Shown here: positions 13,390 to 31,700 of the stretch, one piece after another | How positions within the stretch are numbered: position 1 is the first letter of the stretch | Layout: every line of letters begins with the position of its first letter | Assembly: GCA_020696385.1 (NCBI GenBank) | Contig: JAEHCQ010000005.1 | Location: forward strand, 27,336-91,335 | Source: Methanobacteriota archaeon | GTDB lineage: Archaea; Thermoplasmatota; Thermoplasmata; SG8-5; JAGLSY01 | Length of the DNA stretch: 64,000 bases | Direction: 5' to 3' | Program-made: the position numbers and the translations under genes | Notes under the pieces: generated by a model | Database searches by the model: none | Told to the model about the DNA's origin: nothing | The model's input: the letters and a program-made list of their open reading frames with translations, nothing else

Positions 13390-13433
13390 AAAGCCAAACA
13401 AATTAATTTTATACACTACCACCATCCCGTCCC

Positions 13434-13529
13434 ATGAATGTAATTGACCTTGTAGCCGAGCTTGTTTCTATACCCAGAGCACACCCACTTTTTTCTTTTA
13501 AACCTCGCTGTGCTGGATCGGGCTCCTAA
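13434..13529 (+). pseudogene. Truncated 5' fragment of the M20 peptidase (MNVIDLVAELVSIP then 17 unrelated codons)
   Basis: First 14 codons identical to the intact gene; stop at 13527-13529. Confidence 0.75.
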
Positions 13530-13680
13530 ATCAAGCCCATTTCATGTGCTTGATAAAATAGATGCGTGGACTTTGTCCACATCTAAAAAAGAAAAAAGAC
13601 GGACAAATTAAATCAAGCCAGCTGACTTGATCAAAATAAATGCGTGGGTTCAGTAGGTGAAGTCGCATTTAAAAAGAAAG
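13527..13680. mobile_element. Two tandem copies of a double-hairpin dispersed module (third copy at 31476-31568, opposite strand); mobility inferred
   Basis: AATCAA(G/A)C..loop..(G)(C/T)TTGAT-AAAA(T/A)A(G/A)ATGCGTGG..loop..C(GC)AT(C/T)TAAAAA. Confidence 0.6.
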
Positions 13681-13775
13681 TCGCCCGACCCTGCTCACTC
13701 GGTATTGATTGAACCGTAGATTAGTAAATGAGTAAATAAGCAAAATAATTCTATATCCTAGTGCTATTCAACCCC

Positions 13776-14852
13776 ATGAATGTAATTGACCTTGTAGCCG
13801 AGCTTGTTTCTATACCCAGTACACTTGGAAAGACCACGGATATCGAGAACTTCGTGGCTGGCCAGTTATCCGCAATTATCGATACAGAGTTCATCGAGGT
13901 CCCGGGCAAGGGCAGGTGCGTGCTTGCCCGTTCTATCGCGGATGATAAAAAGCCGACCATAATCTTCAATGGGCATCTGGATACTGTCGAGGTGTGCAAT
14001 GGGTGGACAAAGGATCCCTTCAAGCCAGTGATCGAAGGCGATAAGATGTTCGGCCTAGGAACCGCTGACATGAAAGGCGGAGTGGCAGTTGCCATGCTGG
14101 CATTTCAAGAAGCTGTAAGAAGAGGCATCAATGCGATATTTGTCGGGACCATTGATGAGGAAGGAGATTCGGCGGGTGGCTTTGCTATCAAGGATCTGGG
14201 ACTAAAAGCAGATCTGTGCCTGATAACAGAACCCAGCAATGAGAAGATAATGCAGGGCTGTCGCGGCAGGTACGTGGTGGATGTGAACGTGAGCGGAAAG
14301 AGCGCTCACGGAGCTGTGCCCGAGAAAGGGGTCAATGCGATCACAGAGGCTGGCCGCCTGCTCTCCAGATTGGATGAGTTACCCCTAATTCATCATGATG
14401 TTCTGGGAAAGGGTTCCGTATGCCCACTCAGCGTGGGTGGAGGAACCACCACATTATCGGTTCCGGAAGAATGCCGCATTGTCATCGACAGGCATGTTGT
14501 CCCAGGCGAGACAAAGGAAAGTGTGATGCAGGACATACGCAACCTGGCTGGGAAGATAGACAGCCAGGCGACATTCGATGTGGCACTGAACCAGGAAAGA
14601 CCCACACCTTTCCTGGAGCCATATATCACGCAGGATGATGAATTGACGCGCCGATTCATCAGCACAGTCAAAGGCGATATCGCCTACGGGAAGTCAGTAG
14701 GCGATTACAATATATTTGCCACCATGTGCCCCACGATAGTCCATGGGCCAGTAGGGGAGAATTGGCATTCACCAGATGAGTGGGTGTCTATTTCTTCAAT
14801 AGAAAGATGTCTGGAGAACTACATGAGATTCCTTGATGCTTTCAAGGTCTAA
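13776..14852 (+). CDS. M20 family metallopeptidase/deacylase (ArgE/DapE-like)
   Basis: FNGHLDTV, GLGTADMKGG, DEEG, ITEPS, GKSAHGA, HSPDEWV. Confidence 0.92.
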   Translation: MNVIDLVAELVSIPSTLGKTTDIENFVAGQLSAIIDTEFIEVPGKGRCVLARSIADDKKPTIIFNGHLDTVEVCNGWTKDPFKPVIEGDKMFGLGTADMKGGVAVAMLAFQEAVRRGINAIFVGTIDEEGDSAGGFAIKDLGLKADLCLITEPSNEKIMQGCRGRYVVDVNVSGKSAHGAVPEKGVNAITEAGRLLSRLDELPLIHHDVLGKGSVCPLSVGGGTTTLSVPEECRIVIDRHVVPGETKESVMQDIRNLAGKIDSQATFDVALNQERPTPFLEPYITQDDELTRRFISTVKGDIAYGKSVGDYNIFATMCPTIVHGPVGENWHSPDEWVSISSIERCLENYMRFLDAFKV

Positions 14853-15004
14853 TATCTCACATTAATCGTATATCACCATAGACTAACATATGGCTAACAT
14901 ATGATAGAATTTACCTATATATCATATATATGAAGATATATTCAATATATTAAGTAGATACATTTATCTATTAATTGTCATTCAACCACCAGATAGGTGC
15001 TAAT

Positions 15005-15238
15005 ATGAAAGCGTTCAAAGCAACCGGAACCTTCCTTATGGGCAGAGACACTCAACCATTCAGTAAAGAGGTCGCTGCCAAAGACAAGGAAGATGCAGAG
15101 GAACAGGTATACTCGATCATGGGAAGCAAGCATGGTGTCAAGAGGTTCAGGATCGATATAGATAAGATCGTACCCCTGAAGCAAGAGGACATCACGGATT
15201 CCGTGATAGCTTACAAGACAAGCAAGGGTGAACAATGA
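15005..15238 (+). CDS. rpl18a: 50S ribosomal protein L18ae (LX)
   Basis: FSKEV.A....A.EQVYSIMGSKH.VKR..I.I; conserved position before pfdA-ftsY. Confidence 0.92.
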   Translation: MKAFKATGTFLMGRDTQPFSKEVAAKDKEDAEEQVYSIMGSKHGVKRFRIDIDKIVPLKQEDITDSVIAYKTSKGEQ

Positions 15239-15654
15239 ATGAAGAAGAGATCCAGCAGGCCAGTGCTCAATTAGAGAGCTACAGGGGCCAAATGGAACAA
15301 ATGAAGCAGCAGAACGAGCTTCTCAAGAACCTCAATGATGAGTACATGAGAGCACGTGACACCCTTCTGGACCTCAGCAAGAGATCGCCTGATGACGAGA
15401 TACTGGTACCCATTGGCGGCAATTATTTTATCTTCGCCAAGGTGGATAAACCCGATAAGGCCATTGGAAGCCTGGGAATGAACCTGGCCGCAGAAGAGAG
15501 CACGGAAAAAGCAGTCGAGAGACTGGACAAGAGGATAGCCGAGCTCAGTGATGCGGGAACCAAGATGGCCCAGTCAATGCAGGATATGGATGCCAGGTCC
15601 ACGGAGCTTACCAATAAGCTCCAGGAAGAATACGCCAAGGGCAATGTACAGTAA
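15235..15654 (+). CDS. pfdA: Prefoldin subunit alpha
   Basis: Coiled coils flanking ILVPIGGNYF..K......IGSLG. Confidence 0.92.
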   Translation: MNEEEIQQASAQLESYRGQMEQMKQQNELLKNLNDEYMRARDTLLDLSKRSPDDEILVPIGGNYFIFAKVDKPDKAIGSLGMNLAAEESTEKAVERLDKRIAELSDAGTKMAQSMQDMDARSTELTNKLQEEYAKGNVQ

Positions 15655-15668
15655 GCTTGGTATTTGCC

Positions 15669-16598
15669 ATGTTCAAATTCCTTAAGGATAAGCTGGAAGG
15701 GTTCAAAAAACAGACAAAGGAAGAATTCTCAGCAGAGGCTATATCGGAAGATGACGGCAAGCGCATAAAAGAAAGCAAGCTGGACGATATACTCTGGGAT
15801 CTGGAAGTGGGGCTTCTTGAATCTGATGTGGCTATCGAGGTCATTGAGGAGCTCAAGGAGAACCTGAAGGTGGATCTCATCAATAAGCGAGTGAAAAGAG
15901 GTTCTGATTTTGAAAAGTCTATCAATGAAAGTCTGAAAGCCTCGCTCACCAAGATACTGGACACCGAGACAATTGATTTTGATGAGTTCATCAACACCCA
16001 TGAAAAACCAGTTACATTGATGTTCGTCGGAGTGAACGGAACTGGTAAGACCACTTCCATTGCAAGGATCGCCCACAGACTGAAGAAACAGGGGAAATCC
16101 TGTGTACTGGCAGCGGCCGACACATTCAGAGCTGGGGCCATAGAGCAATTGACAATTCATTCGGAAAATCTGGGATTCAAGATAATAAAACATCAATCGG
16201 GTGGAGACCCGGCTGCGGTTGCCTATGATGCAGTTGCGCATGCCAAGGCCAGGTTCCGGGATGTCGTTCTCATAGACACGGCCGGCAGGATGCAGACGAA
16301 CTCCAACCTGATGGATGAGATGAAAAAGATCAATAGGGTTGTCGAGCCAGACATGGTGATATTCGTTGGTGACTCACTAGCAGGAAATGACGCAGTGGAG
16401 CAGGCCAGGAAGTTCGAAGAGGCTATCGGATTGGATGCGGCCATACTTACGAAAATAGATGCGGACGCGAAGGGCGGAGCTGCATTATCGATCGCACATG
16501 CGGTTGGCAAGCCAATAATATTCGTGGGAACTGGCCAGGAATATGAGGACCTGGAAAAGTTCGATGCTCAATGGATGATCGATAAGATCTTTGGATAG
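15669..16598 (+). CDS. ftsY: SRP receptor FtsY
   Basis: GVNGTGKTTSIARIA, AAADTFRAGAIEQL, DTAGRMQT, TKIDADAKGG. Confidence 0.97.
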   Translation: MFKFLKDKLEGFKKQTKEEFSAEAISEDDGKRIKESKLDDILWDLEVGLLESDVAIEVIEELKENLKVDLINKRVKRGSDFEKSINESLKASLTKILDTETIDFDEFINTHEKPVTLMFVGVNGTGKTTSIARIAHRLKKQGKSCVLAAADTFRAGAIEQLTIHSENLGFKIIKHQSGGDPAAVAYDAVAHAKARFRDVVLIDTAGRMQTNSNLMDEMKKINRVVEPDMVIFVGDSLAGNDAVEQARKFEEAIGLDAAILTKIDADAKGGAALSIAHAVGKPIIFVGTGQEYEDLEKFDAQWMIDKIFG

Positions 16599-16601
16599 AT
16601 C

Positions 16602-19600
16602 TTAATTTTTAAATTTCTTAATGTTTATAAGATACATTTCCTCAGTCAAATTACCATCTTTGTAAGCCATCTCTATTTTATCTATGATCTCTTGATTAGG
16701 ATGAGGTGGCTCAGGCTCAATTGCCAGATCATCAGCACAGATCGGGCATTGTAGGCCTGGATCGATCAGGAAACCACAAACTGGGCAGATATTTTCGACC
16801 TCAGTTGCTTGTTCTTCGTATAGATCATCTTCAGATGATACATCTTCATCAAATGAGGCGTCATCTTCGACAGGTCCATCATCTTTATTTTTACGAACAA
16901 ATAGGAATGCCAGGAACAATAATATAATGAGCCAGATCAACATCCCGATGTATATCATCGGGTCTTGGTCCTTTGACACATATTCCTCTACCCCATCTTC
17001 TGTTTCATCCAGGGGAGCAGGGTCAAATTCATCGAGTACTCCGTCATTGTCATCATCAGTGTCTTCATTGTTACCAATGCCATCCCCATCAGTATCTATT
17101 GATTCATCAGCATCAAATGGGAAAACATCATCAATATCTGGAACTCCATCATTGTCATCATCAGGGTCATCCACATCAAGTATACCATCTCGATCATTAT
17201 CTCCATGAACAACAATGATCTCAATTGTCGAGTTTATATTACCGGAATAATCTTCGACCGTGAAAGTGATACGATAAGTTCCAGGGTCTTCAAAGATATA
17301 TGATATATCATTTTGATAATTATCCAGATGACCTGGATAATCAATTGACCAATAACTATTTGCAATTCCAATATTGTCTGTTGAATTTGATCCCCAGAGA
17401 TATGTTGTTTCTCCTTCGATCGTCTCTCTAGGAACATTAATGTCAATATTTGGCTTGGTTGTATCAACTACAAAAAATAGATCTGCATTCATCGGAGGGG
17501 ATTCTTGATTGCCAGATATATCCTCTGCGATAGAATAGAATTGATACCAACCATCATTTGGTGCATTGGCCTCAACATCATAATAATATGAAGGCGTATA
17601 GTTCCATTTTGCATATGTGAAATTATTATGCTCATATTTCCAGTCAGACCAGGTTATATTATCCGCACTGTACCTTGACCATAGGCTTATGCTCTCATAA
17701 TAATAATGTACGGCATAAGAATAATTGATATTGACCATTGTGTTCTGCAAACCACTTGTTGAATCAGTAGCACTCCAAGAAAAATATAGATCCCCAAGAT
17801 CATGCCAGAAATCTTCTTGAAAGGATAGCTTAGACACAGGATCTGAAGTATCAATACAAAGAGATATGGGTGGTTCAGAAGGGGATTCTTCATAATTCCC
17901 TACTACATCACGTGCTACAGAATATAATTGATAGAAGCCATCATTACTTGGCATTTTAAAAGACCAACTACCATTATTTTCCTCCGCATACCTATGTGAA
18001 AAATAATCAGTCCATGTTAGATTGTCAGAGCTACGCCTATAATAAATATTAATTTGATCCAATCCAGTCAAATTATCATGAGCATCGATTGATAGATTAA
18101 ATGAACCATTGTTATGATAATATGGTACAGGAATTATCTCTGAGCTTGGATTCAGGGTATCACGAATAGTCTTTGTCTCTGAACTATTTTTACATATCTC
18201 AAAATTCCCATAATTGTCCTCAGATAAAGAATAGAACTCATAATATCCATCACCTTCAGGGAAGTCAAAAAGCCAATTCCATTGTGAGATAGAATCCTCA
18301 TTATATTGTTTCCAGGGAGTCCATGTAATATTAAATGAGCTATGGCGATACCATAATGTAACATTCTTAAGGCCAAATCCATCCAGATCCTCTGCGGTAG
18401 AATTTATAAGTTCAGACTGAGAGTTAATATATCTGGGAATCGATCGTAAAGATGATGTTGGTTTGATATGATCGTGAACTGGGTTCATCAGTGAATAATT
18501 ATCACTACTAAATGCGGGATAAGAATCGATATCATATCCCGAATCACCGAATCCATCTGAACCGGATATATTCTGACCCGGACCAGACATCAGATCTAAG
18601 CCATCATAGTCCGACCAGTAATTTCCCCCGATCGGGTATATGTTATTCCAATAATTTGTTGAATAATAATCATAGGCACCATAATTATTATCTAAAAATG
18701 AATTATGATAGACCATGTTCCAATCTGAATGAGAGAACATTAAGCCTCGAAAGTTATTCCATATTGTATTGTTGATTATAAAATTATTAAAACAATCATA
18801 TAAATATATCCCATAATATCCATAATTATATGGATACCCATTCCCATGTATCAAATTATTAGATATGGATGAATTTCTCGTACTTTCCATGCATATCCCA
18901 TAATATTCATTTTCTATCGTATTGTTTTGTATTGTAATATTATTCGAATAACCAGCTAATATCCCACAGGATCCATCCATTAATGTGAAGTTCTGAATGA
19001 TCGAATCTGAACAATTCGCTAAAATGATCTGACCTGCATCAGATGGTATATTAACATCAGTTTGGTTTTTAAGATAATATATTGGCAACCCATTGATAGT
19101 ATTATTGATGAATGAATGAGTATTCCAATCCAATATAATATCATTATACCAGTATCTAATCATGATTCCAGTATTTATCAGAACATTGTCTTGGATCAGT
19201 ATATATTTATTGCCGCGGATACCTATACCGACATCATAGTTATCTATTGAATTATTTATTATACTATTATTATTCCCCGGTTTCATAGTGATTCCAGTAT
19301 CCCTTGTTCCAGAAAAGATATTGTTCTGTATTATGTTTCTATCACCCTGGCCTTCGATGGAGGTTTCCATAAAAAGGTTATTTTCAATTACATTATCATT
19401 ACCAGTGAATGAGACACCTCGATAACTATTATGAGCGATCTGGTTATTTACCACAGTATTATTATTCCCAGTAATAATCACTGCGTCCTCTTGATCATAG
19501 AGCTTATTATCAAATATCATAAAATTATCTGAGTTGAAAAGTTGAATTCCATTGGAACAATTCTCAATTACAATATCATTGATCTGACCATTTGTACAGA

Positions 19601-20459
19601 ATCCTAGAATGATGCTGCCGTATGTCTCTGTAAAAGTATAATTGGAGAGCACGACATTCTTGCAATCTGCATATATTATCTGGCCTGGACCAGTTACATA
19701 AGGAGGGGTGTTAGTGTTCTTGAAATAATATATCGGCAACCCTTGAACTAAATTTGTGGTGTAAATATAATGAGTATCCCATTCTTCGACTAAGGTTCCA
19801 TAGATATGAATTCCATTGCTAAGGATATTACCTGAAAATGTATTGTGTTGGGATCGCAACATACGGATATCATCCCAATTGTTGATACTCCACCAATAGG
19901 GAGAAATATGAGTCTCAATCTGATTATTGATGATCAAATTGTAATTGCTTCCATCTAGGAACAATCCATAATATACCGAACTAATTTGATTGTTTTCAAT
20001 AAGGTTATGATCTGAATGAACAGATAGATATATCCCTCTGCTGCAATTATGGATAATATTATTGATAATATCACCATAATCAGTATTCCATAGTTGAATC
20101 CCAGCAGCTTCCCAATATAATCCACTCCAATTAGAATAAGGAAACATCAATGTACAATTTCGGATAATGAAGTTATCTGTCACGTTCCCCAAGTAAATGC
20201 AGGGTCCAAAAATGGTTCCATTGATCTCCCAGTTCTCGATCACCCAGGGATTGCCAGCACTCCCATTCCCACTAGATACTCCATTAGCAAGGGTAAAATC
20301 AGCATTTGAATTTATTCGGATCTCACCGCGAGGTGTAGTTGTAATCACATATGTAGACACATCCTTGGCTTCCGTATTATTAGCATTTGGTTCGGTAAAT
20401 AATATGATGGAACTAAATATCAATAGTACCGATAGCCAAACAGTAAATGCCTTTCTCAT
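16602..20459 (-). CDS. Large cell-surface protein: NosD/PbH1 beta-helix repeats, Ig-like/PKD domains, TSP3-like Ca repeats, TM, Zn ribbon
   Basis: Signal peptide; Asn/Ile-rich NN.I.NN repeats, GGNYWSDY; DNDRDGILD..D.DDDNDG repeats; TM; CPVC..CPIC. Confidence 0.85.
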   Translation of the reverse strand: MRKAFTVWLSVLLIFSSIILFTEPNANNTEAKDVSTYVITTTPRGEIRINSNADFTLANGVSSGNGSAGNPWVIENWEINGTIFGPCIYLGNVTDNFIIRNCTLMFPYSNWSGLYWEAAGIQLWNTDYGDIINNIIHNCSRGIYLSVHSDHNLIENNQISSVYYGLFLDGSNYNLIINNQIETHISPYWWSINNWDDIRMLRSQHNTFSGNILSNGIHIYGTLVEEWDTHYIYTTNLVQGLPIYYFKNTNTPPYVTGPGQIIYADCKNVVLSNYTFTETYGSIILGFCTNGQINDIVIENCSNGIQLFNSDNFMIFDNKLYDQEDAVIITGNNNTVVNNQIAHNSYRGVSFTGNDNVIENNLFMETSIEGQGDRNIIQNNIFSGTRDTGITMKPGNNNSIINNSIDNYDVGIGIRGNKYILIQDNVLINTGIMIRYWYNDIILDWNTHSFINNTINGLPIYYLKNQTDVNIPSDAGQIILANCSDSIIQNFTLMDGSCGILAGYSNNITIQNNTIENEYYGICMESTRNSSISNNLIHGNGYPYNYGYYGIYLYDCFNNFIINNTIWNNFRGLMFSHSDWNMVYHNSFLDNNYGAYDYYSTNYWNNIYPIGGNYWSDYDGLDLMSGPGQNISGSDGFGDSGYDIDSYPAFSSDNYSLMNPVHDHIKPTSSLRSIPRYINSQSELINSTAEDLDGFGLKNVTLWYRHSSFNITWTPWKQYNEDSISQWNWLFDFPEGDGYYEFYSLSEDNYGNFEICKNSSETKTIRDTLNPSSEIIPVPYYHNNGSFNLSIDAHDNLTGLDQINIYYRRSSDNLTWTDYFSHRYAEENNGSWSFKMPSNDGFYQLYSVARDVVGNYEESPSEPPISLCIDTSDPVSKLSFQEDFWHDLGDLYFSWSATDSTSGLQNTMVNINYSYAVHYYYESISLWSRYSADNITWSDWKYEHNNFTYAKWNYTPSYYYDVEANAPNDGWYQFYSIAEDISGNQESPPMNADLFFVVDTTKPNIDINVPRETIEGETTYLWGSNSTDNIGIANSYWSIDYPGHLDNYQNDISYIFEDPGTYRITFTVEDYSGNINSTIEIIVVHGDNDRDGILDVDDPDDDNDGVPDIDDVFPFDADESIDTDGDGIGNNEDTDDDNDGVLDEFDPAPLDETEDGVEEYVSKDQDPMIYIGMLIWLIILLFLAFLFVRKNKDDGPVEDDASFDEDVSSEDDLYEEQATEVENICPVCGFLIDPGLQCPICADDLAIEPEPPHPNQEIIDKIEMAYKDGNLTEEMYLINIKKFKN

Positions 20460-20530
20460 CTTCCTCTTCCTCAGCCTAGTTTAAGAGTTTAGAGTATTTT
20501 AGGGTTGTGGAATATAAGAAAAGAAATAAG

Positions 20531-20788
20531 ATGCGGGGAACCGTGTGAACGATATGCCCTTGGCATGATGTTCACATCGTAGGCCATAAACCCAATTCTC
20601 GAAGCTTACGTCTTGCTTCGAGTCCAGATGAAACATAATGGTGGGTTTACGGCAACCGTTTACTACTTTCGAATCCTATAATGAAAAATGCGGGGAACCG
20701 GATTTCGCACCTACACTTCATTGCGGTGCTCTCTCGAATTTACAAGTAAATTCTCGATCGAACTTCGTTCGAATCCTATAATGAAAAA
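20531..20788 (-). mobile_element. Two tandem structured units (157 and 100 bp), each ending in a copy of the tRNA-Leu 3' end; mobility inferred
   Basis: 37-bp exact repeat at 20668-20704 and 20768-20804; 13-bp copy at 20531-20543; several internal hairpins. Confidence 0.75.
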
Positions 20789-20872
20789 TGCGGGGAACCG
20801 GATTCGAACCGGCGAATCACTAAGAACTAGACCCTGAATCTAGCGCCGTTGACCAGGCTTGGCTATCCCCGC
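20789..20872 (-). tRNA. tRNA-Leu (CAG)
   Basis: GCGGGGATAGCC...CTAGA-TTCAGGG-TCTAG...GGTTCGAATCC...CCCCGCA; long variable arm; CCA not encoded. Confidence 0.95.
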
Positions 20873-20970
20873 ATGGTGTTATGGATAAGCCCTGTAAATT
20901 CAAGAGGTTTATAAAATCTTTGATTGGATTGTATAATTTTCCGCCGATATCCTTATATCATGAAATTATC

Positions 20971-22014
20971 ATGCCGAATACAATGGCCTCACTTGGCGCA
21001 CTCAAAAGGAGCATGGCTCTCACCCTGATCATGATATTCGGACTTCTGTTCGTGTTCATCATGCTGATATTCGAATTCATGATGTGGTACTACAATGGAA
21101 CTATCAATATTATCGGCCAGCTTATTTTGATATTCTTCTTTGTCGGCATCTTCATGCTCATACAATGGGCGGTCTCCCCCGGTATAATAAGATGGGGGTC
21201 CAAACTTCAGTATCTAAAGCCCGGAGAATACCAGTGGCTGGAGCAGGAAGTTAGTCAATTGTCAAAACAGGCGGATATCCCCATGCCGCGATTGGCCATC
21301 TCCCGAGACCCAACACCCAATGCCTTCGTGTTCGGAAGATCAAGAAAGAGTTCCACACTGACTGTCCACACCGGGCTATTGGAGAAGCTCAATCAGAACG
21401 AGATAAGAGGCGTTCTGGCGCATGAGATAGGACATCTGCGTCACAATGATGTCGTTGTCATGACGGTTGTAAGCGCAATACCCATGCTGGCCTGGATGCT
21501 GGCCCGAAGCTTCCTCTGGGGAGGAAGGCGCAACAGGGATGCTGGTGCGATCATCATAGTTGCCATTATCAGTTATGTGGTCTACTTCATATCCCAATTA
21601 CTTATATTGAAGCTGTCAAGACAGAGAGAGTTCTATGCTGATTCTTACTCGGCTGTCGCTACTGGTGATCCGCACAGCCTCAGCTCGGCACTTGCCAAGA
21701 TAACATTCGGACTATCACTATCAAATGAAAAGCCAGGGGCTGCCAGGGCCTTTTATATCGGGGATCCAGTTAGCGCGAAGAGGGAGATCGCCAGCATCAT
21801 GCAGAATAAGAACAAGTACGATCTGGATGGAGATGGGGTTCTGGACGAAGGAGAGCTACAGAAGGCCATGGAGGAGCAGGCGAAGAGTGGGCGCGCCAGG
21901 ATGGAGTTCATGTCCACCCATCCGTCCACATTCAAGAGGATACTGCTTCTCAAACAGATAGAAACTGACATTGGCCATGGTGGGGCCAATGCGAATATCT
22001 ATGATCATATTTGA
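20971..22014 (+). CDS. htpX: HtpX-like M48 zinc protease with an EF-hand insertion
   Basis: PNAFVFG, VLAHEIGHL, SRQREFYAD, STHP; DLDGDGVLDEGE loop. Confidence 0.9.
   Translation: MPNTMASLGALKRSMALTLIMIFGLLFVFIMLIFEFMMWYYNGTINIIGQLILIFFFVGIFMLIQWAVSPGIIRWGSKLQYLKPGEYQWLEQEVSQLSKQADIPMPRLAISRDPTPNAFVFGRSRKSSTLTVHTGLLEKLNQNEIRGVLAHEIGHLRHNDVVVMTVVSAIPMLAWMLARSFLWGGRRNRDAGAIIIVAIISYVVYFISQLLILKLSRQREFYADSYSAVATGDPHSLSSALAKITFGLSLSNEKPGAARAFYIGDPVSAKREIASIMQNKNKYDLDGDGVLDEGELQKAMEEQAKSGRARMEFMSTHPSTFKRILLLKQIETDIGHGGANANIYDHI

Positions 22015-23242: not shown

Positions 23243-23255
<13 letters not shown>
22536..23255 (+). CDS. ribB: 3,4-dihydroxy-2-butanone-4-phosphate synthase
   Basis: DADGREEETD, GGLIC, TGITDKDR, FRTPGHL, GHTE, ICEM. 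Confidence 0.95.
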
Positions 23256-24198
<943 letters not shown>

Positions 24199-24292
24199 TG
24201 CAGCCAATATATGATAGTATAAATATAATTCACAATATTAAAATAATAATATTAAATTCAAAGAATAATAAAAAGTAAAGGAGGAGTAAAAA

Positions 24293-24694
24293 ATGAAAAT
24301 AGGAATTGTGGTATCGGAATTCAATTACGACATAACCATGAGTATGCTGGAAAGGGCCAAGGCCCATGCGGATTTCCTTGGCGCGAAGGTCGGAGAGATC
24401 ATCCACGTCCCAGGGGTCTATGATATGCCCCTGGCGGTCAAGAAATTGCTTGCAAAGAAGGATATCGATGGTGTAGCCGCTCTTGGAGCAGTCATCGAGG
24501 GCGAGACAGATCATGATGATGTCGTGATCAATCAGGCCAGCAGAAAGTTGACAGATTTGTCATTGGAATTTGACAAGCCTGTTGGCCTTGGAATAACTGG
24601 ACCTGGCATGTCGAGGCTTCAAGCAGAGGCAAGGATAGAGAGAGCGAAGTCTGCTGTCGAATCCATTGTCAAGATGCACAAAGCATTGAAATAA
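24293..24694 (+). CDS. ribH: 6,7-dimethyl-8-ribityllumazine synthase
   Basis: IVVSEFN, VPGVYDMP, LGAVIEGETDHD, KPVGLG. Confidence 0.96.
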   Translation: MKIGIVVSEFNYDITMSMLERAKAHADFLGAKVGEIIHVPGVYDMPLAVKKLLAKKDIDGVAALGAVIEGETDHDDVVINQASRKLTDLSLEFDKPVGLGITGPGMSRLQAEARIERAKSAVESIVKMHKALK

Positions 24695-24705
24695 ACAATA
24701 GGAAA

Positions 24706-24731
24706 AAGCCAGCCATTTGAAAGGCTGGCTT
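24706..24731 (+). terminator. Hairpin terminator of the rib operon
   Basis: AAGCCAGCC/GGCTGGCTT followed by GTTTTT. Confidence 0.7.
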
Positions 24732-24872
24732 GTTTTTATATTTGCTTAATTTATATTATTGTCTATATAATATTGGATATATTATATTGATTAAATATAT
24801 CTGAATATATATTTAATTCAAATTAATATTAAGATAGCGATGTGGTCGAAAGCCAAATGCCCGATCCCTTAT

Positions 24873-25559
24873 CTATTCCTGAATGACTTCGAATCCATCT
24901 TGATCGAATATCAGTGGGAAGTATCCCCTGGCATGGTTGGATTTTCTCATCTTCGCAACACCCAGGAACAGATTGACATTATTATCATCCCTCTTGAGAT
25001 CAAGGTGAATTATTCCATCACTAAGGAAGTCCTCATCCCGGTTCAGATCACCCTGTCTGCTATCTTCTGAAATAATAAATACAGTAACACCCAGCTCTCT
25101 AAGCCAGCCGAAGAATCTGAATAATTCCGCACGCTTGTTCTTAACATCTGCCATGACCTCGATAGCAGGCAATGAATCTGCAACCAAGATCTCATATTCC
25201 ATGCTGGCCTGGATATTCTCCGCATACATCTTGAATATCCTCATCCAGCTCTGCCCTTCCTCGGATGTGTCCACATTGGATTTCAAATATCCCATGTCCA
25301 CTATATTGACCATGTTCTCCACAGCAATATGATCCATTCCAAGCTCGGCCATATGCTCAAGCAGTGAATCTCGTCCTTGCTCGAGGGACATGTATATCCC
25401 TTTCTTACCTTCCTTTAAAGCGTTTTGATAAAGTATATTGTAGCCTATGGATGATTTCATTGTTCCTGGCTTTCCAGCCAGTAAGACCACGTGGCCCTTT
25501 GGTATTCCACCATTCAATTGCTCGTCAAGTCCCTTTATATAAGTTTTCAAACGTTCCAT
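24873..25559 (-). CDS. KaiC-like/RAD55 RecA-superfamily ATPase
   Basis: TYIKGLDEQLNGGIP, GKPGTMKS, DSL, DGIIHL, KMR. Confidence 0.88.
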   Translation of the reverse strand: MERLKTYIKGLDEQLNGGIPKGHVVLLAGKPGTMKSSIGYNILYQNALKEGKKGIYMSLEQGRDSLLEHMAELGMDHIAVENMVNIVDMGYLKSNVDTSEEGQSWMRIFKMYAENIQASMEYEILVADSLPAIEVMADVKNKRAELFRFFGWLRELGVTVFIISEDSRQGDLNRDEDFLSDGIIHLDLKRDDNNVNLFLGVAKMRKSNHARGYFPLIFDQDGFEVIQE

Positions 25560-25738
25560 GGTATTATCCCCTACTGACGTGGTAAATATCTGTTTGTGTA
25601 TAAATATTATCACCATCATTGACGATCTATTAGCGATATTGATGGATTTCAAAAACCATATTACTCAATAGATGATCTTCATCGCACTCTACCGATTGCA
25701 TAAATACTCCTTTTATATTCCCATTATGAGGTCGTGTA

Positions 25739-26851
25739 TTGGTTCCAGGCTCCAAAAAAAGGCTAATCACCATGTTATTGTTGATGGTGATCGTTTTCAG
25801 CATAGGTAATCTTATCTTCAATGTTGAGAGACTGGACATGGGCGACGAGATAATTCTAGATAACCCAGAAGCAGAGGGAGGGGGATCGTACATAGCCTCC
25901 AGCAGCACGATGGCCGAAACTGTCAGATACATGATGATAGGATTCATGGCCATCGGGATCATCATAACCATAGGCGGTATCGTCTATGGCACAGCCACCA
26001 AAGACAAGGAATTCATGAAATCCATCATGTATCCTCTGATAGGTGGTGGGTTGGCAATCCTGCTCATTGTTGGAACATTCGCCTATCTGGAGATCGAGAA
26101 GAGTGAATACACCCAGAATGAGCTTCTGGAAGAAGGCTATACATCATCCAATAGCACAGGAGGCTCTGGAAATTACACAGAGCCATCAAATGTGAAGCCA
26201 GACGGCATGGACATGGCAGTATCTGTTATGTTGGCCATAGGGGCTGTTGCGGGGATAGCTATTGCCATATTCGCCATCAGCCAGATAACCCAACTCAGAA
26301 CTGAATCTTTATCTGGAATAGATATGGAAGCAATGACCGAAGAAGTGGGGCAAACCATCCAGAAAGCGATGGACGATATGACGAGTGGGACTGATGTCAG
26401 ATCGTCCATAATGAGATGTTACAGTGATATGTGCAAGCTGGCGTCCAAGCATGGCATTTCCGATGAAGAGCATCTGACACCCCGTGAATTTGAATCAATG
26501 GTCGGCTCCAGGCTTCCCATAGAAGATGAGAAATTACATGATCTTATACTGATATTCGAGGAAGCCAGATACAGCGACCATGATCTGTCAGAAGAAATGC
26601 GTAATAAGGCCATTATCGCCCTTGGCAGCATAAAGGACGATCTTGTGATCGAGGAAGAAATAGATATAGAGACAGTAGATGAGATTGAGAAAGTGGATGA
26701 CAAAAAGGTAGAGAAGGATAAGAACAAGAAAATAGAAACGGAGAAGAACAAGAGGATAGAGGGGGAGAAAGACAAGGAGAAAGAGAATGACGATGATCAC
26801 GACACGCCCTCGGTCGTGATGATCCAGGTAGGTGATGATAATGGCAAATAA
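25739..26851 (+). CDS. DUF4129-type membrane protein of the MoxR operon
   Basis: Three to four TMs; RCY..M, HLTPREF, LIFEEARYS; charged low-complexity tail. Confidence 0.8.
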   Translation: MVPGSKKRLITMLLLMVIVFSIGNLIFNVERLDMGDEIILDNPEAEGGGSYIASSSTMAETVRYMMIGFMAIGIIITIGGIVYGTATKDKEFMKSIMYPLIGGGLAILLIVGTFAYLEIEKSEYTQNELLEEGYTSSNSTGGSGNYTEPSNVKPDGMDMAVSVMLAIGAVAGIAIAIFAISQITQLRTESLSGIDMEAMTEEVGQTIQKAMDDMTSGTDVRSSIMRCYSDMCKLASKHGISDEEHLTPREFESMVGSRLPIEDEKLHDLILIFEEARYSDHDLSEEMRNKAIIALGSIKDDLVIEEEIDIETVDEIEKVDDKKVEKDKNKKIETEKNKRIEGEKDKEKENDDDHDTPSVVMIQVGDDNGK

Positions 26852-27536
26852 TAATGAAGCCGCTCTTGACAGATCATCATATGTTTCCACACACGTGGAG
26901 ATCACACCATCCGATACCTTGAAACTTGTTGAGGGAAAGCTGATAGGCGAGAGTTTGCTTGGGCCTACTGGCATTAGGGAATTGTTCATCAATGCCCTGG
27001 TTCTCGTGTTCTATCTGGTCCTGCTTTCTATTCCATTTGTTTCATTTGCCTTTGTCAGTGGGGGGATGAGGTGGATAATTGTTGTCATGGTGGTGACAAC
27101 AATCGCCCTCTACACTGTCTATGTTATGAACATGGGCATCCAGAAGAAGGCATGGAAAAAGACGATCATGGAAAAGAAATACTTCTCGGGTGATCTTTCA
27201 CGAGCGAATGACATAATCACAAGGGGAGCTGGCGGATATAGCTACAGCCAGCAGTTGATGAGAGAGATGATGGCGGAAGCCATGATAGAGAAGATCAGAC
27301 TGGGAAGAGGAATGACCACCAGAGAGATCGAGATGGCCATTGATGAGCCTGAAAGATTCAGGGATATCGTTGATGATGAGATTATAGCGACCTTCATACT
27401 GGCCAATCAGAAAAAGGCAGAGGGATGGAGCGATAGGATCTCCCGAAAGAAGAGTGATCGGGAGAAGACCGAGAGCGGTCGTAAATTCATGTTAGAGATC
27501 AAAGATATATTAGAAAGAGTGGAGGACTGGGAGTGA
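26832..27536 (+). CDS. Membrane protein of the MoxR operon
   Basis: Two TMs; overlaps both neighbouring genes. Confidence 0.7.
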   Translation: MMIMANNNEAALDRSSYVSTHVEITPSDTLKLVEGKLIGESLLGPTGIRELFINALVLVFYLVLLSIPFVSFAFVSGGMRWIIVVMVVTTIALYTVYVMNMGIQKKAWKKTIMEKKYFSGDLSRANDIITRGAGGYSYSQQLMREMMAEAMIEKIRLGRGMTTREIEMAIDEPERFRDIVDDEIIATFILANQKKAEGWSDRISRKKSDREKTESGRKFMLEIKDILERVEDWE

Positions 27537-28483
27537 ATATTAATGAACTGGCAGAAAAGTGCAATGGAATAAAGACGGAGGTGGCCAAGGCCATCGTTGG
27601 AAAGGATGATGTCATCGATAAGGTGATACTGGCCACCCTGGCAAATGGCCACATACTATTCGAGGATTTTCCTGGATTGGCAAAGACCCTATTGGCCAAT
27701 ACATTCTCAAGGGCATTGGGCTGTGGCTTCAGAAGAGTGCAGTTCACCCCGGATCTACTTCCTGCGGATATTACTGGATCATATATCCTGAACAGGCAGA
27801 CCAATGAGTTCGAGCTGAGAAAAGGGCCGGTGTTCACGAACATACTGCTGGCGGATGAGATCAACAGAGCCCCACCAAAGACTCAATCCGCTCTGTTAGA
27901 GGCAATGCAGGAGCGCCAGACGACTCTGGAAGGAGATACACACAAACTACCAGCTCCTTTCATCGTTATAGCCACGCAGAACCCCATCGAGTACGAGGGA
28001 ACATACCCGCTCCCTGAAGCTCAGATAGATCGATTCATAATGCGACTGGATATTGGCTATCCAACTCTCAAAGGGGAAGCCGAGATACTTAGAAGAAGGC
28101 GAACCAGGAAGAAAGAGGAAGTTGACATATTAGCTGTCAGCTCACCTCAGGAGATCATCTCGATGCAGGCGGCCATCGAGGAAGTGCATGTTGAATCAGA
28201 TATAGAGGAATACATAGCACAGATCGTGCAGAACACAAGAAAACACGGTCAGGTGGAGGTCGGAGCCAGTCCAAGAGGTTCACTGGCCCTTATGCAGTTG
28301 GCAATGGCACGTGCGGCCATGAATGGAAGAGACTATGTTCTTCCGGATGACATTAAGGGGATGTGTGTGCCGGCTTTGGCCCATAGAATAATCCTCAAGC
28401 CAGATCCATGGATAAAGGGCATCAAGACAGAGGTCATTGTTGACAAGGTCGTCTCTGATATTCCTGTCCCGAAGGTGAAATAA
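27533..28483 (+). CDS. moxR: MoxR family AAA+ ATPase
   Basis: EDFPGLAKT, RVQFTPDLLPADI, DEINRAPPKTQSALLEAM, ATQNPIEYEGTYPLPEAQ.DRF. Confidence 0.96.
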   Translation: MNINELAEKCNGIKTEVAKAIVGKDDVIDKVILATLANGHILFEDFPGLAKTLLANTFSRALGCGFRRVQFTPDLLPADITGSYILNRQTNEFELRKGPVFTNILLADEINRAPPKTQSALLEAMQERQTTLEGDTHKLPAPFIVIATQNPIEYEGTYPLPEAQIDRFIMRLDIGYPTLKGEAEILRRRRTRKKEEVDILAVSSPQEIISMQAAIEEVHVESDIEEYIAQIVQNTRKHGQVEVGASPRGSLALMQLAMARAAMNGRDYVLPDDIKGMCVPALAHRIILKPDPWIKGIKTEVIVDKVVSDIPVPKVK

Positions 28484-28502
28484 CTGAGATGAGTGAATCT
28501 AA

Positions 28503-29774
28503 ATGAGATCGAGAAAAGGATTCTGGATAGTGGCTTCCGCCATAGCCTGTATAGTCATGGGTGTATGGCTTCGCAGTGGTAGCCTTATTGCCATATCCTT
28601 GCCCCTGATAATTTATCTGGTGGTATCGATCACGATGTTCAAGGACCCCAATTACTCGCTGAATATCAGCCGCTCGATAGATGAGAGCAGGGTGATGACG
28701 GGTGACAATATCCAAGTCACGCTTCATTTGAAGAACACCGGAGCAGCTATCCAGTGTTTGGAGATCGAGGATCTCATCCCGCCTTATGTAAAGGTGTCCG
28801 AGGGAAGCAATAAGGCCATTCTGACACTGAAGGAACTCGAGGAATATGATCTCGAGTATCAGATAGTCTGCCCATACAGAGGAAGGTTTGAGTTCAAGGG
28901 TGTGTGGATCAGAGCAAAGGATTTCATGGACTTCTACACACAACAGATGGAGATCAAGCTTCTGACAACGATCTCTGTCACATCCGAGATAGAATCCTCC
29001 AAGGGACTGAAGATCGCACCCAGAAAGACCAGGAACTGGATCGGCATGATCAAGGCTCGCAGAGTGGGTGTGGGTACCGAGTTCTATGGAATTCGGGAAT
29101 ACATTGCTGGAGACGAGCTCAGAAAGATCAATTGGAAAGCATCTGCCAAACGCGACGTGTTAATGACAAATGAATTCGAGAGCGAGTGCAGTGGTGATGT
29201 CACCATCATGCTCGATGCCAGAACAGAAACGAATGTTGGCAATACAGACAAGAACACGGTGGAACATGGAGTGAGAGCCGCCTCCACGATAGCCTCTCAC
29301 ATACTCATGGACAAGAACCGTGTTGGACTTATTGTATTGAGGGACATAATCGACGAGGTATATCCTGCCTTTGGGAAGAGGCAGTATTATCGCATCTCTG
29401 AAAAGCTGATGGATGTCCAGCCAGGAGGGAGCATGCCCTTTGATGATGCTCGCTGGATGGTGACCCGGCATTTCCCACTTGAATCACAGATAATCGTCAT
29501 AAGCCCGCTTGTGGATTACAAGATCGTGCAGAGCATCGCGGATCTCTGTGCCAGAGGGTATGACGTAGTAGTTGTCTCGCCATCTCCGATCAAGGTCGAG
29601 GGGCAGATAATCGAGGCCTCGAATGAGTTGGAAATGGCCAAGAACCTGAAGAGATTGGAAAGAGACAATCTCATTTCAGAACTATATCGATATGCCAGGG
29701 TGGTGGATTGGGATCCATCAGAGCCACTGGCAAAAGCATTGAAGGGGGTGGAAAGATTAAGAGCGAGGTTCTAG
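28503..29774 (+). CDS. DUF58 domain protein
   Basis: EFYGIREYIAGDELRKINWKASA, MLDAR. Confidence 0.92.
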   Translation: MRSRKGFWIVASAIACIVMGVWLRSGSLIAISLPLIIYLVVSITMFKDPNYSLNISRSIDESRVMTGDNIQVTLHLKNTGAAIQCLEIEDLIPPYVKVSEGSNKAILTLKELEEYDLEYQIVCPYRGRFEFKGVWIRAKDFMDFYTQQMEIKLLTTISVTSEIESSKGLKIAPRKTRNWIGMIKARRVGVGTEFYGIREYIAGDELRKINWKASAKRDVLMTNEFESECSGDVTIMLDARTETNVGNTDKNTVEHGVRAASTIASHILMDKNRVGLIVLRDIIDEVYPAFGKRQYYRISEKLMDVQPGGSMPFDDARWMVTRHFPLESQIIVISPLVDYKIVQSIADLCARGYDVVVVSPSPIKVEGQIIEASNELEMAKNLKRLERDNLISELYRYARVVDWDPSEPLAKALKGVERLRARF

Positions 29775-30436
29775 AGGAACAGACAGACTATGAAACTGAA
29801 ATATCTGTTGATGGATATTCCACCCTCGGAACAAATGGACATGCCAAGCCAGGTATCAATCCCATGGCCATCATTTCCCTTTCCATACTTATTTGCCTGT
29901 CAATGTGGCATCTTCTGCAAACATATGAAGCAGGAGCGGATATGAATGATCATATTACCGCAATAGCATTGAGCATTATCATTGGTGTGACTGGCCTTTT
30001 CATAAATGTTCCAGGAAAAGGAGAGTTGAGAGATTACCTGACAAACAAGCTGGAGCGCAATCGCCATCTATTGTTGGGCATCTCCTGTGTCATAATGGGA
30101 GGCATTCATTTCATGACATTCGCAAAGGCGACTGACATCGTGCCCATGTTCGGCTTCATGGTCATGCTGATCGCCTATTATGACCTGGGATCATTGGCCA
30201 TCCGTACCGCGCCTTATTTGATCCTGAATGATACGAATGATAGCACCAGGCGGTTCATAAGATACTCGGGAGGCAAGATACTTGTAGCCCTCGGGATCAC
30301 CTTCCTCATGTCCACATTCATGCTGTTCATATCCCTCATGGGCATAATTGGATTTACAGGGGTCTGGACTGTTCTTATTCTGGCAGCCATGCTAATGGGA
30401 TCACTTGGCATGATAGTCCGGTCTGGCAATGTGTGA
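29708..30436 (+). CDS. Multi-TM hypothetical membrane protein (start uncertain)
   Basis: About six hydrophobic segments; last gene of the operon. Confidence 0.65.
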   Translation: MGSIRATGKSIEGGGKIKSEVLEEQTDYETEISVDGYSTLGTNGHAKPGINPMAIISLSILICLSMWHLLQTYEAGADMNDHITAIALSIIIGVTGLFINVPGKGELRDYLTNKLERNRHLLLGISCVIMGGIHFMTFAKATDIVPMFGFMVMLIAYYDLGSLAIRTAPYLILNDTNDSTRRFIRYSGGKILVALGITFLMSTFMLFISLMGIIGFTGVWTVLILAAMLMGSLGMIVRSGNV

Positions 30437-30515
30437 ATTCGGTAAACACAATAGTTTTCGGTAAGCCGAAATTTATATATACACAATTATCATTAGGTAA
30501 ATTGCAGGTGAGAAT

Positions 30516-31304
30516 TTGGAAAGCGTGACATTCGCATTATTACTGACCACCATAGCGGGTCTATCCACTGGATTGGGCGGAGCAGTCGTACTGCTACAGA
30601 AAAAGCCCAATAAAACCCTCCTCACCTTTTCCCTGGGGCTTTCAGCCGGGGTCATGGTATATGTTTCTTTCATGGAGCTTTTACCCGATGCGATCGAGGG
30701 CATTGGAGAGGTTGCTGGCATACTGGCCTTCTTCGTCGGAGTTATGTTCATAGCTCTGATCGATGCCCTTCTACCGAAACAGCTGAATCCTCATCATTTC
30801 AGCAGGATCACTGGCAGAAAATGTGAAAAGAAAAAGAAGAGAAGTGAAGCAGAATGCCGCCTAATGAGGGTGGGCACCTTCACAGCAATTGCCATAACGA
30901 TCCATAATTTCCCAGAGGGAATAGCGACCTTTAGCGCGAGCCTGACGGACATCAGACTTGGGATGGTCATTGCCATCGCGATAGCCTTACATAATATTCC
31001 AGAGGGCATCTCGGTAGCCGCCCCCATATTCGCAGCCACAGGTGATAAGATCAAGGCCTTCAAGTACGCCTTTCTATCTGGAATAGCAGAGCCCATTGGT
31101 GGTATATTCAGTTTTATCGTGCTCTACAATTTCATGTCTGATTCCCTTTTGGCAGGATTACTGGCCTTTGTGGCTGGAATAATGATCTACATATCTCTTG
31201 ATGAGATATTACCCACAGCCCATAGCTATGGCAAGAGCCATGTTGTGCTGGCAGGTGTTATGCTGGGTATGTTCATAATGGCAATGAGCTTACTTATGTT
31301 GTGA
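30516..31304 (+). CDS. zupT: ZIP family zinc transporter
   Basis: AITIHNFPEG, IALHNIPEGISVAAP, SLDEILP. Confidence 0.95.
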   Translation: MESVTFALLLTTIAGLSTGLGGAVVLLQKKPNKTLLTFSLGLSAGVMVYVSFMELLPDAIEGIGEVAGILAFFVGVMFIALIDALLPKQLNPHHFSRITGRKCEKKKKRSEAECRLMRVGTFTAIAITIHNFPEGIATFSASLTDIRLGMVIAIAIALHNIPEGISVAAPIFAATGDKIKAFKYAFLSGIAEPIGGIFSFIVLYNFMSDSLLAGLLAFVAGIMIYISLDEILPTAHSYGKSHVVLAGVMLGMFIMAMSLLML

Positions 31305-31398
31305 ACTGCCAGATATCCTGAAAATTTCCATAGATATTATGCACAAATCTAAACCAAGCTTTTATTATGGGTATTGCATTCTCGATAAAATTACCAAA

Positions 31399-31473
31399 GG
31401 GCGCGTAGCCTAGCCAGGATATGGCGCTAGCCTTCTAAGCTAGAAGCCAGGGGTTCGAATCCCCTCGCGTCCG
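31399..31473 (+). tRNA. tRNA-Arg (TCT)
   Basis: GGGCGCG/CGCGTCC acceptor stem, CTAGC-CTTCTAA-GCTAG anticodon arm, GGGGTTCGAATCCCC T arm. Confidence 0.95.
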
Positions 31474-31700
31474 CTCTTTTATTTTTTTAAGATGCGACTT
31501 TATCATTTGATCCCACGCATCTTTTTTATCAAACAAATTTGTAAAAGATTCAGGTAATGAGTTTGATTCGATATGTTTAGAGGACGCGAGGTGGATGAGA
31601 ACGGAGTTCGACGAGATTTTTCTGAATATAATGAAGAAAAAGCGAGCAAGACCTGGATGCTGAAAGCAGACAGGTTGCTGATCCCCTCGCGTCCGCTCTT
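31474..31700 (+). mobile_element. 222-bp structured unit ending in a direct copy of the tRNA-Arg 3' end; mobility inferred
   Basis: atcccctcgcgtccgctctt at 31459-31478 and 31681-31700; inverted degenerate copy from 31582; double-hairpin module at 31476-31568. Confidence 0.75.

Follow-up and report, generated by a model that had tools for sequence, protein, structure and literature searches.

Comparison of filled and empty sites shows that a dispersed double-hairpin module, present in three copies in a 64-kb stretch of an archaeal chromosome, is a discrete and separable insertion, independent of the attachment-site-like (att-like) duplications that surround it. The stretch (hereafter the window: 64,000 nt of contig JAEHCQ010000005.1, assembly GCA_020696385.1) has a GC content of ~45% and, in the parts that were scanned, encodes housekeeping genes and archaeal-type tRNAs. 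The module represents a small, previously undescribed family that is restricted to a clade of uncultured sediment Thermoplasmata, known from cold-seep and deep-sea metagenome bins. With somewhat better than even confidence, we regard it as a lineage-specific miniature palindromic insertion element with terminator-like properties, similar to the repetitive extragenic palindromic (REP) elements and the palindrome-associated transposable elements (PATEs).

Structure and copies of the double-hairpin module

In one orientation (A orientation), the module reads (TCGA)-ATCAARC-inner part-GYTTGAT-(C)AAAAWAR-ATGCGTGG...TCGCAT-YTAAAAA; its complement (T orientation) consists of a T run, hairpin 2 (RATGCG...CGCATY), a YTATTTT linker, hairpin 1 (ATCAARC...GYTTGAT) and, usually, TCG. 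The two hairpins, ATCAAAC/GTTTGAT and ATGCG/CGCAT, are unrelated in sequence. Hairpin 1, with an overall length of 20–42 nt, has a free inner part of 6–28 nt across the family, which in some copies contains a small palindrome of its own. Hairpin 2 has a conserved asymmetric internal loop, with TGGG opposite GT, and beyond it a second short stem of the TTCA/TGAA type. Units of ~68–85 nt are found singly, as tandem pairs, or within larger mosaics of unrelated hairpins. In the stems as defined here, 97% of cells are paired, as opposed to 22–39% when the partners are slid against each other. Each helix contains one compensatory pair: in hairpin 1, G-C is replaced by A-T, and in hairpin 2, A-T is replaced by G-C (compare AAATGCG/CGCATTT with AGATGCG/CGCATCT). 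An earlier reading of this DNA, made from its letters alone (the original prediction), had described a conserved dispersed cis-element with fixed stems and variable loops, and this description is borne out: the stems are paired and the loops are free. The G-T wobbles favour different strands in different copies and do not point to a single acting strand.

Two of the three copies in the window lie in tandem upstream of an M20 peptidase gene, within a composite element at 13479–13700 (+ strand). Copy 1 consists of hairpin 1 at 13530–13554 (+ strand; ATCAAGC-N11-GCTTGAT) and of a short variant of hairpin 2 at 13560–13584 (+ strand; AGATG-CG-TGGAC ttt GTCCA-CATCT), directly followed by an A run at 13585–13598 that becomes a T run when read on the minus strand. 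Copy 2 has hairpin 1 at 13612–13631 (+ strand; ATCAAG-C-CAG/CTG-A-CTTGAT, the G-less version ATCAAGCCAGCTGACTTGAT) and hairpin 2 at 13638–13670 (+ strand; AAATGCG-TGGG..-..AAGT-CGCATTT, then TAAAAAG). The composite is enclosed by a stem (13515–13523/13683–13691) and by a T run (13488–13499) that pairs with an A run (13587–13598). It is 81% identical to a different locus of the related bin SF.bin51 (L006), and the homology begins at the very end of the duplicated target described below. Copy 3 is on the minus strand, with hairpin 2 at 31490–31522 (AGATGCG..CGCATCT) and hairpin 1 at 31528–31567 (ATCAAAC-N26-GTTTGAT); on the plus strand, its hairpin 2 is preceded by a T run (31479–31489) that directly follows a tRNA-Arg gene. 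The arms of hairpin 1 are separated by 6/7, 11 and 26 nt in the copies of the window.

The similarity of these copies is far above chance, and the original prediction located all three of them, with both shared flanks, correctly. The sequence ATGCGTGGG-N11-AAGTCGCAT occurs exactly at 13640–13668 (+) and 31492–31520 (−) and has no third match in the window even with three mismatches (0.08 expected by chance); the ATCAARC..GYTTGAT hairpins at 13530–13554 and 31528–31567 are likewise expected 0.08 times. A covariance model (R1) built from eight copies, with copy 2 left out, has exactly three matches in the 64 kb: 31479–31571 (−) with 87 bits, 13526–13595 (+) with 80 bits, and the withheld copy 2, G-less hairpin included, at 13608–13681 (+) with 60 bits (E ~1e-9). 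All other matches of R1 in the window, none better than E ~0.01, are reverse-strand echoes of the palindromes. The proposed resemblance of the arm CCCACGCA to the tRNA-Leu 3' end TCCCCGCA amounts to a weak likeness, six of eight bases, and found no further support.

Filled and empty sites

The extent of copy 3 is defined by an empty-site allele. Behind tRNA-Arg(TCT) (31399–31474, + strand), a contig assembled from a cold-seep metagenome (DNA), the only public run with related sequence, is identical to the window over 85 nt (31395–31479), skips 31480–31570, where it has ATTTTT instead, and resumes at 31571. This contig contains both of the repeats that bound the insert and lacks the module, so that copy 3 corresponds to a 91-nt insertion at 31480–31570 (− strand). 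SF.bin51 has the same duplication-bounded unit at tRNA-Arg, again with no module, in the order core, T-rich stretch, AGAGGGCGCTAGG..., core.

A second set of sites is found behind tRNA-Leu(CAG), which is followed by an array whose number of units varies between genomes from one to three; every unit terminates with a duplicate of the tRNA 3' end, CGGTTCCCCGCA (window 20532–20800, minus strand; L008 6803–7330; L014 3373–3552; L016 5805–6300). In the orientation of the tRNA, the array reads tRNA - Y - core - X - core in the window, tRNA - Y - core - X - core - module - X' - core in SF.bin51, and tRNA - module - Y - core in L014. In unit 3 of SF.bin51, the module is represented by exactly 68 extra nucleotides between ...TTTTTCATT (ending CATT) and ATAGGATTCGAA (ATAGG), a junction that is uninterrupted in three paralogous or orthologous copies. 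In L014 the module lies at the identical point, in this case behind the genuine tRNA-Leu, where both the window and SF.bin51 have none. The three filled/empty pairs at tRNA-Leu and tRNA-Arg display neither a target-site duplication nor terminal inverted repeats. In these three clean cases the left flank is T-rich, the right flank is ATA, and the insertion point lies a few bases behind the tRNA 3' end or its copy; over all loci, a T run is found on one side and ATA, ATT or ACT on the other.

The copies of two other bins also occur apart from duplicated targets: a search for flanking direct repeats around the RS_9_71 and RS_8_37 copies found none. In RS_9_71, the module is part of a 235–330-bp mosaic of seven hairpins that is present at three loci with 82–95% identity (L002 2079–2411, L003 5679–5917, L004 6756–7063). 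One component of the mosaic is similar to unit X of the tRNA-Leu array and another hairpin begins with GTAG; the end that carries an extra hairpin, CCAGGCC..GACCTGG, is always 0–90 nt from a gene start. The intergenic region of the window that is orthologous to a mosaic site (~51.65–52.17 kb) has no module. Neither SF.bin51 nor RS_8_37 has an insertion upstream of the M20 gene, where their spacers measure 48 nt and 68 nt, respectively; this site is the only place where insert and module may have arrived together. The proposal that the module is part of the same insert family as the duplication-bounded segments did not hold up, since there are tRNA-Arg inserts that lack the module and copies of the module that lack the repeats.

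The distribution of the family was examined with a strict sequence pattern that fits all three copies of the window and for which we estimate a chance expectation of ~0.2 in 596 Gb. Applied to 185,579 species genomes, this pattern retrieved seven loci, none of them outside three Thermoplasmata bins: three in RS_9_71 and two each in RS_8_37 and SF.bin51. All seven also carry the 3' arm of hairpin 2 and the A run, neither of which is required by the pattern. A variant copy, ATGCGTAGG, lies behind tRNA-Leu in a fifth assembly, L014. In total, the family comprises at least 10 (about ten) independent loci in five related assemblies, all of them intergenic. Copies outside the window are accordingly found in related Thermoplasmata, and the absence of any, which the original prediction had named as grounds for rejecting it, was not what we observed. 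The closest relatives of the M20 peptidase come from metagenome bins labelled Thermoplasmata, Thermoplasmatota or Methanobacteriota.

With two or three strict-pattern matches per genome bin and two loci in 64 kb, copy number is to be read with the caveat that the bins are fragmented and that repeats break assemblies. Among public sequencing runs, one cold-seep DNA run and no RNA run was found to contain the locus or related sequence. In the cold-seep run, contig depth rises on the module alone, and several short contigs leave the module into different flanks; the depth peak and the differing flanks indicate that the module is multi-copy in that community. Neither the window nor ~107 kb of related loci yielded further diverged copies with model R1. 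A scan of JGI metagenomes gave only three matches, all inside coding sequence and lacking the rest of the module, as would be expected by chance. Pattern scans of IMG/VR and BLAST searches of plasmid and phage collections produced no module match, leaving an origin from a virus or plasmid unsupported. In a search against all Rfam families, the inserts scored no better than E ~0.26 and only two tRNAs reached the gathering threshold; with no match to C/D box RNAs, group II introns, omega-RNA-type or other Rfam families, known RNA families were rejected.

Duplicated targets and units closed by tRNA ends

The duplications that bound the copies of the window are real and are found where the original prediction had placed them. 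At the M20 site, the promoter and the first 15 codons of the peptidase gene are duplicated: a distal copy at 13431–13477 (+ strand, 47 nt, exact) precedes the composite, and a proximal copy at 13773–13819 (+ strand) is continuous with the intact M20 gene, whose ATG is at 13776. At 83% identity, the duplication extends to 87 nt (13396–13482). At tRNA-Arg(TCT), a 20-nt exact repeat (31459–31478/31681–31700) comprises the tRNA 3' end and starts in the T loop, the first copy being made up of the last 16 nt of the gene and 4 nt of its trailer. The tRNA-Leu 3' end is present three times in the window, at 20532, 20689 and 20789. Both tRNA duplications reach from the T loop to beyond the tRNA 3' end, and a footprint from the T loop to the 3' end is classical for att sites of tyrosine integrases in tRNA genes. 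The inserts are 57–260 nt long, non-coding and built of hairpins. Only two of the five duplication sites of the window hold the module; the duplication-bounded inserts in the tRNA-Leu units, at 37366–37580 and at 13171–13388 lack it. The duplications are a separate and more general feature of this genome, and we attribute their co-location with the module to a preference for gene ends and tRNA trailers that the two share, and not to a common origin.

An assembly artefact can be rejected as the source of the duplications. The NCBI contig L001 (GCA_020714265.1), a 6-kb sequence from an independent assembly, is 100% identical to 10613–16791 of the window, M20 insert included, and the sole difference between the two is that L001 has two fewer units of a 62-bp tandem repeat; furthermore, SF.bin51 has homologous tRNA-Leu and tRNA-Arg arrays. 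An integrase remnant of the SSV type within the inserts was also rejected, as the open reading frame (ORF) across the second tRNA-Arg repeat contains stop codons in SF.bin51, and so was one in unit X, where the apparent ORF is broken by frameshifting indels between copies. A target duplication of the casposon type was set aside because the repeats vary in length (12–16, 20, 43, 47 and 88 nt) and there are no terminal inverted repeats.

The duplications without the module take several forms. An 88-nt direct repeat (94% identity; 37366–37453/37493–37580) comprises the promoter and the first 21 codons of a small zinc-ribbon gene on the minus strand (MKCLKCKHTW...), and the 39-nt filler between its copies does not contain the double hairpin. 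In the segment 13171–13388, two variants of a 31-nt hairpin unit alternate in tandem over 3.5 periods of 62 nt; the first unit corresponds to the last 10 codons and the stop codon of a 172-aa gene (12685–13203); SF.bin51 has instead two tandem copies of the whole 172-aa gene (L009 2755–3273 and 3434–3952). Between ftsY and the tRNA-Leu array, the window encodes a 1285-aa beta-helix/NosD/PKD protein (16602–20459, minus strand, ~33% GC); SF.bin51 lacks this gene and has two small ORFs in its place. A segment at ~31350–31740, comprising tRNA-Arg(TCT) and its duplication-bounded unit, is inverted relative to SF.bin51 (L017 5790–6060), with the order of the flanking genes for a ZIP transporter and an M14 peptidase unchanged; RS_9_71 (L019) has the SF.bin51 orientation at tRNA-Arg and no duplication. 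In two scaffolds, an N gap coincides exactly with the interval between duplicated tRNA 3' ends (L016 ~5826–5926, tRNA-Leu; L018 ~5871–5970, tRNA-Arg). The variable 1285-aa gene, the inverted tRNA-Arg segment and the N gaps are all compatible with an integration hot spot. The tandem module pair of SF.bin51 lies on a 686-bp contig of its own (L006), and repeats of the module type break short-read assemblies.

The tRNA-linked inserts themselves are structured. Unit X (~145 nt, ~20532–20676, minus strand), located behind tRNA-Leu, is represented by five copies from three genomes. Their consensus structure comprises 37 base pairs, compensatory changes are seen in 10, and G-U pairs are conserved when the tRNA-sense strand is read. 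In the closing helix of unit X, GGATTCG/CGGTTCC, the 3' strand is the duplicated segment of the tRNA 3' end; the unit has no Rfam match. The tRNA-Arg unit (~120 nt, 31579–31700, + strand) ends in the second copy of the tRNA-Arg 3' end (31681–31700) and is closed by a 10–13-bp stem between AGAGGACGCGAGG (31579–31591) and this second copy (GGACGCGAGG/CCTCGCGTCC). Because this unit is common to SF.bin51, it is older than the insertion of the module; its ORF is not conserved. An X-like hairpin is also found within the dispersed mosaic of RS_9_71. ARAGORN, with introns allowed, returned nothing credible for the tRNA-Arg unit and for X, and a pseudo-tRNA or an intron-bearing tRNA was rejected for both. 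For units of the X type, possible identities are structured RNAs, structures formed by DNA, and additional palindromic mobile units, and quasi-palindrome correction could also produce the compensatory changes of unit X without functional selection. Covariation gives good support to unit X, a candidate for a new structure of RNA or DNA and the more intriguing by-product of this analysis.

Three other regions of the window show internal repetition or paired genes. At 41100–47200 it encodes large acidic proteins with many internal E/D-rich repeats and repeated CxxC...CxxC zinc-ribbon motifs. In the intergenic region 1723–1884, two adjacent 80-nt copies are 73% identical, with a start-to-start distance of 82 nt. 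The adjacent ORFs at 23713–24195 and 24293–24691, close to other genes of the riboflavin pathway, both match DMRL (lumazine) synthase and may be paralogues, or riboflavin synthase together with lumazine synthase.

Placement, rival explanations and comparison with known systems

On one strand, each hairpin of the module is followed by a run of 5–7 T, and a simple terminator scan called two module hairpins, both on the T-run strand. The module lies in T orientation directly behind tRNA-Arg in the window, behind tRNA-Leu in L014 and behind a copy of the tRNA-Leu end in L008. In L005, it follows the stop codon and a GC hairpin of a 1038-aa gene in this orientation, and a convergent gene ends ~10 nt beyond; in L006 it is behind a gene end. 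The M20 site and the three RS_9_71 loci each have a gene start at most 100 nt off, and there the T orientation is directed away from it; in L007, the T orientation is directed toward a gene start. From this arrangement, the module would be expected to act as a terminator in about half of the cases and elsewhere, at best, to block transcription that is divergent or antisense. Tolerated and perhaps targeted sites, namely T-rich trailers and gene boundaries, are the better explanation for its placement.

If the module is a REP/PATE-like insertion element, its spread would depend on its hairpins and would most likely proceed through single-stranded DNA, by an HUH/Y1-transposase route of the IS200/IS605-REP type; alternatively, similar T-rich trailers may recombine through short homologies. 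The module would persist since trailers and gene boundaries tolerate insertion. In the T orientation, its units of hairpin and oligo-T would terminate archaeal transcription or protect RNA 3' ends, with predicted sites of action behind tRNA-Arg and, upstream of the M20 gene, against divergent or antisense transcripts. The roles suggested in the original prediction, as a tandem terminator or a single-stranded-DNA signal, are plausible.

Several points weigh against an insertion element of this kind. No transposase or recombinase appears to be linked to the module; among the genes in the scanned parts of the 64-kb window there is no transposase, recombinase, integrase or gene similar to the REP-associated tyrosine transposase (RAYT). 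At two or three strict-pattern matches per bin, the copy number is modest. The flank preference (T run | ATA) is loose, unlike the fixed 4–5-nt target of IS200/IS605, and the two hairpins are dissimilar, unlike the left and right ends of IS608. Two compensatory pairs among 8–10 related sequences are weak statistics, and quasi-palindrome correction could yield such pairs without functional selection. A pattern resembling site-specific insertion could also arise from precise deletions that occurred repeatedly, or from gene conversion among similar trailers. Finally, approximately half of the loci face away from a gene start, so termination is not the sole reason for their placement.

Two rival explanations tie the module to the surrounding inserts. 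In a model that follows the original prediction, it would be the att-adjacent arm of a single family of integrative elements. These would enter the 3' ends of tRNAs as well as gene ends, with duplication of the target; the inserts seen here would be stripped-down remnants or non-autonomous mini-versions, and the module a terminator, a recombinase-binding site or a single-stranded-DNA signal. This would account for the location of all three window copies within duplication-bounded intervals, for the tyrosine-integrase-like att footprint of the tRNA duplications, for the module abutting the tRNA-side junction at tRNA-Arg of the window, in L014 and in L008, and for the M20 composite beginning exactly where the duplicated target ends; the variable low-GC gene beside the tRNA-Leu array would fit a hot spot. 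We nevertheless consider it unlikely. The tRNA-Arg insert with both repeats lacks the module in SF.bin51 and in the cold-seep contig, tRNA-Leu units exist with and without it, the RS_9_71 and RS_8_37 copies have no flanking repeats, and module-free inserts between duplications are found at 37366–37580, at 13171–13388 and in the tRNA-Leu units of the window; in addition, neither an integrase among the scanned window genes, nor an integrase fragment in the inserts, nor a match in viral, plasmid or phage collections was detected. It is quite unlikely, in our opinion, that the module is part of a structured non-coding RNA system, as a promoter/leader or 5' domain of unit X, unit Y or the tRNA-Arg unit, or as a small RNA itself. 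Three loci do have the order tRNA end - module - structured unit - tRNA-end copy - T run, the fold of unit X (37 predicted pairs, 10 with compensatory changes, conserved G-U on the tRNA-sense strand) would fit such a system, the inserts fold better than shuffled sequence (z −3 to −4.4) and the AT-rich linkers, as we read them, resemble archaeal TATA boxes. However, X and Y units without the module exist, as does the module without X or Y (L005, L006, L007 and the M20 site), the X-like part of the RS_9_71 mosaic is inverted relative to the module, no Rfam family matches, and the orientation of the G-T wobbles is inconsistent between copies.

The two remaining alternatives concern the hairpins themselves. 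Ordinary, vertically inherited terminators with no mobility, similar by convergence or constraint, would explain the T runs after the hairpins, the terminator orientation behind a gene or tRNA at 5 of ~10 loci and the position between convergent genes in L005. This explanation is largely refuted by the clean presence or absence of the module at collinear sites, and we consider it very unlikely: ~60 nt of specific sequence, including unpaired linkers and the internal loop, are common to non-homologous loci, and at four loci the T orientation points away from a gene start. Moreover, the window has two loci versus ~53 ORFs of at least 90 aa, and the module is therefore not the general terminator of this genome. 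A site similar to attC of an archaeal integron is suggested by the comparison of ATCAAAC/GTTTGAT with the RYYYAAC/GTTRRRY cores, where by our reading six of seven positions match each consensus, and by the conserved stems with a variable centre. In integrons, every gene cassette of the array beside intI has at its 3' end an attC site, an imperfect palindrome of 57–141 nt. At 20–42 nt, hairpin 1 is too short for attC (~57–141 nt), there are no cassette arrays and no integron integrase nearby among the scanned window genes, the copies are found behind tRNAs and in between housekeeping genes, and hairpin 1 is always accompanied by a second hairpin to which it is unrelated. We have rejected this candidate on size and context, and we hold it to be extremely improbable.

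A broader reading would place the module, together with X, Y and the tRNA-Arg unit, in an undescribed class of non-coding structured mobile units in archaea, each closed by a helix that uses the duplicated T-stem/acceptor segment of a tRNA; we consider this possible, if rather doubtful. Such units may colonise tRNA trailers, rebuild the tRNA 3' end in their own fold and stack into arrays. They may constitute a new family of structured RNAs linked to tRNAs or, alternatively, miniature integrative or single-stranded-DNA elements that are mobilised in trans, and the double hairpin may be their portable terminator or entry module.

To our knowledge, small dispersed palindromes of the type of REP elements and bacterial interspersed mosaic elements (BIMEs) have been characterised mostly in bacteria. 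An archaeal family with clean filled and empty sites would allow hairpin-dependent, duplication-free insertion, and the enzyme responsible for it, to be tested, and it raises the question of whether compact genomes obtain terminators for their tRNA and protein genes ready-made from such elements. The family also bears on why assemblies of metagenome-assembled genomes break or gap at duplications of tRNA 3' ends and at the 686-bp contig L006. More generally, a repeat that is co-located with att-like duplications need not form one element with them.

Strict membership in the REP, PATE or MITE class (MITEs being miniature transposable elements with inverted repeats) is not established: the module behaves like these elements and fits none of them, because it has no GTAG/CGTC tag, unlike hairpins, no terminal inverted repeats, no target-site duplication and a loose target. 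Bacterial REPs and BIMEs are mobilised by RAYT, a TnpA of the IS200/IS605 superfamily, and reach hundreds of copies per genome. At one foot of their palindrome, REP elements have a conserved tetranucleotide, either GTAG or CGTC (PMC3733652). Like them, the module is a short imperfect palindrome, extragenic, present at many unrelated loci and occurring in single, tandem and mosaic form (the latter in RS_9_71); it has neither target duplication nor terminal inverted repeats, its presence varies between close relatives, and it is often found behind genes, where termination or RNA stabilisation is possible. It differs from them in its archaeal host, in a fixed pair of different hairpins with a conserved A/T linker, in AT-rich rather than GC-rich stems and in a copy number that is apparently in the tens, not hundreds, with no RAYT-like gene known to be associated; its hairpins lack GTAG and CGTC, GTAG being found only in the neighbouring hairpin of RS_9_71. 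With PATEs and other miniature derivatives of IS200/IS605, the module shares subterminal hairpins, duplication-free insertion, a short preferred site and plausible single-stranded-DNA intermediates. In PATEs, however, similar left and right hairpins are recognised by one TnpA, whereas the hairpins of the module are unlike each other; its flanks are loose (T run | ATA, with three clean cases only), no tnpA or tnpB was seen nearby, and at ~70 nt it is smaller than typical PATEs.

The resemblance to archaeal oligo-T/hairpin terminators lies in the T runs after the hairpins and in the position of the module behind two genuine tRNA genes and two protein genes. Unlike such terminators, its sequence recurs at unrelated loci, its presence is polymorphic, and half of the loci face away from any gene end. 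The likeness to tRNA att sites of tyrosine integrases, and to the pieces of tRNA genes that integrated elements leave behind, concerns only the context and not the module: duplications that start in the T loop, arrays, an adjacent variable gene and one inverted segment. The inserts differ from integrated elements in their size (57–260 nt), their non-coding nature, the absence of an integrase remnant and the conservation of the structure of unit X across genomes. MITEs such as the SM elements of Sulfolobus have terminal inverted repeats that match an IS element and a target-site duplication of fixed length, both of which the module lacks, but, like them, it is small, non-coding, dispersed and non-autonomous.

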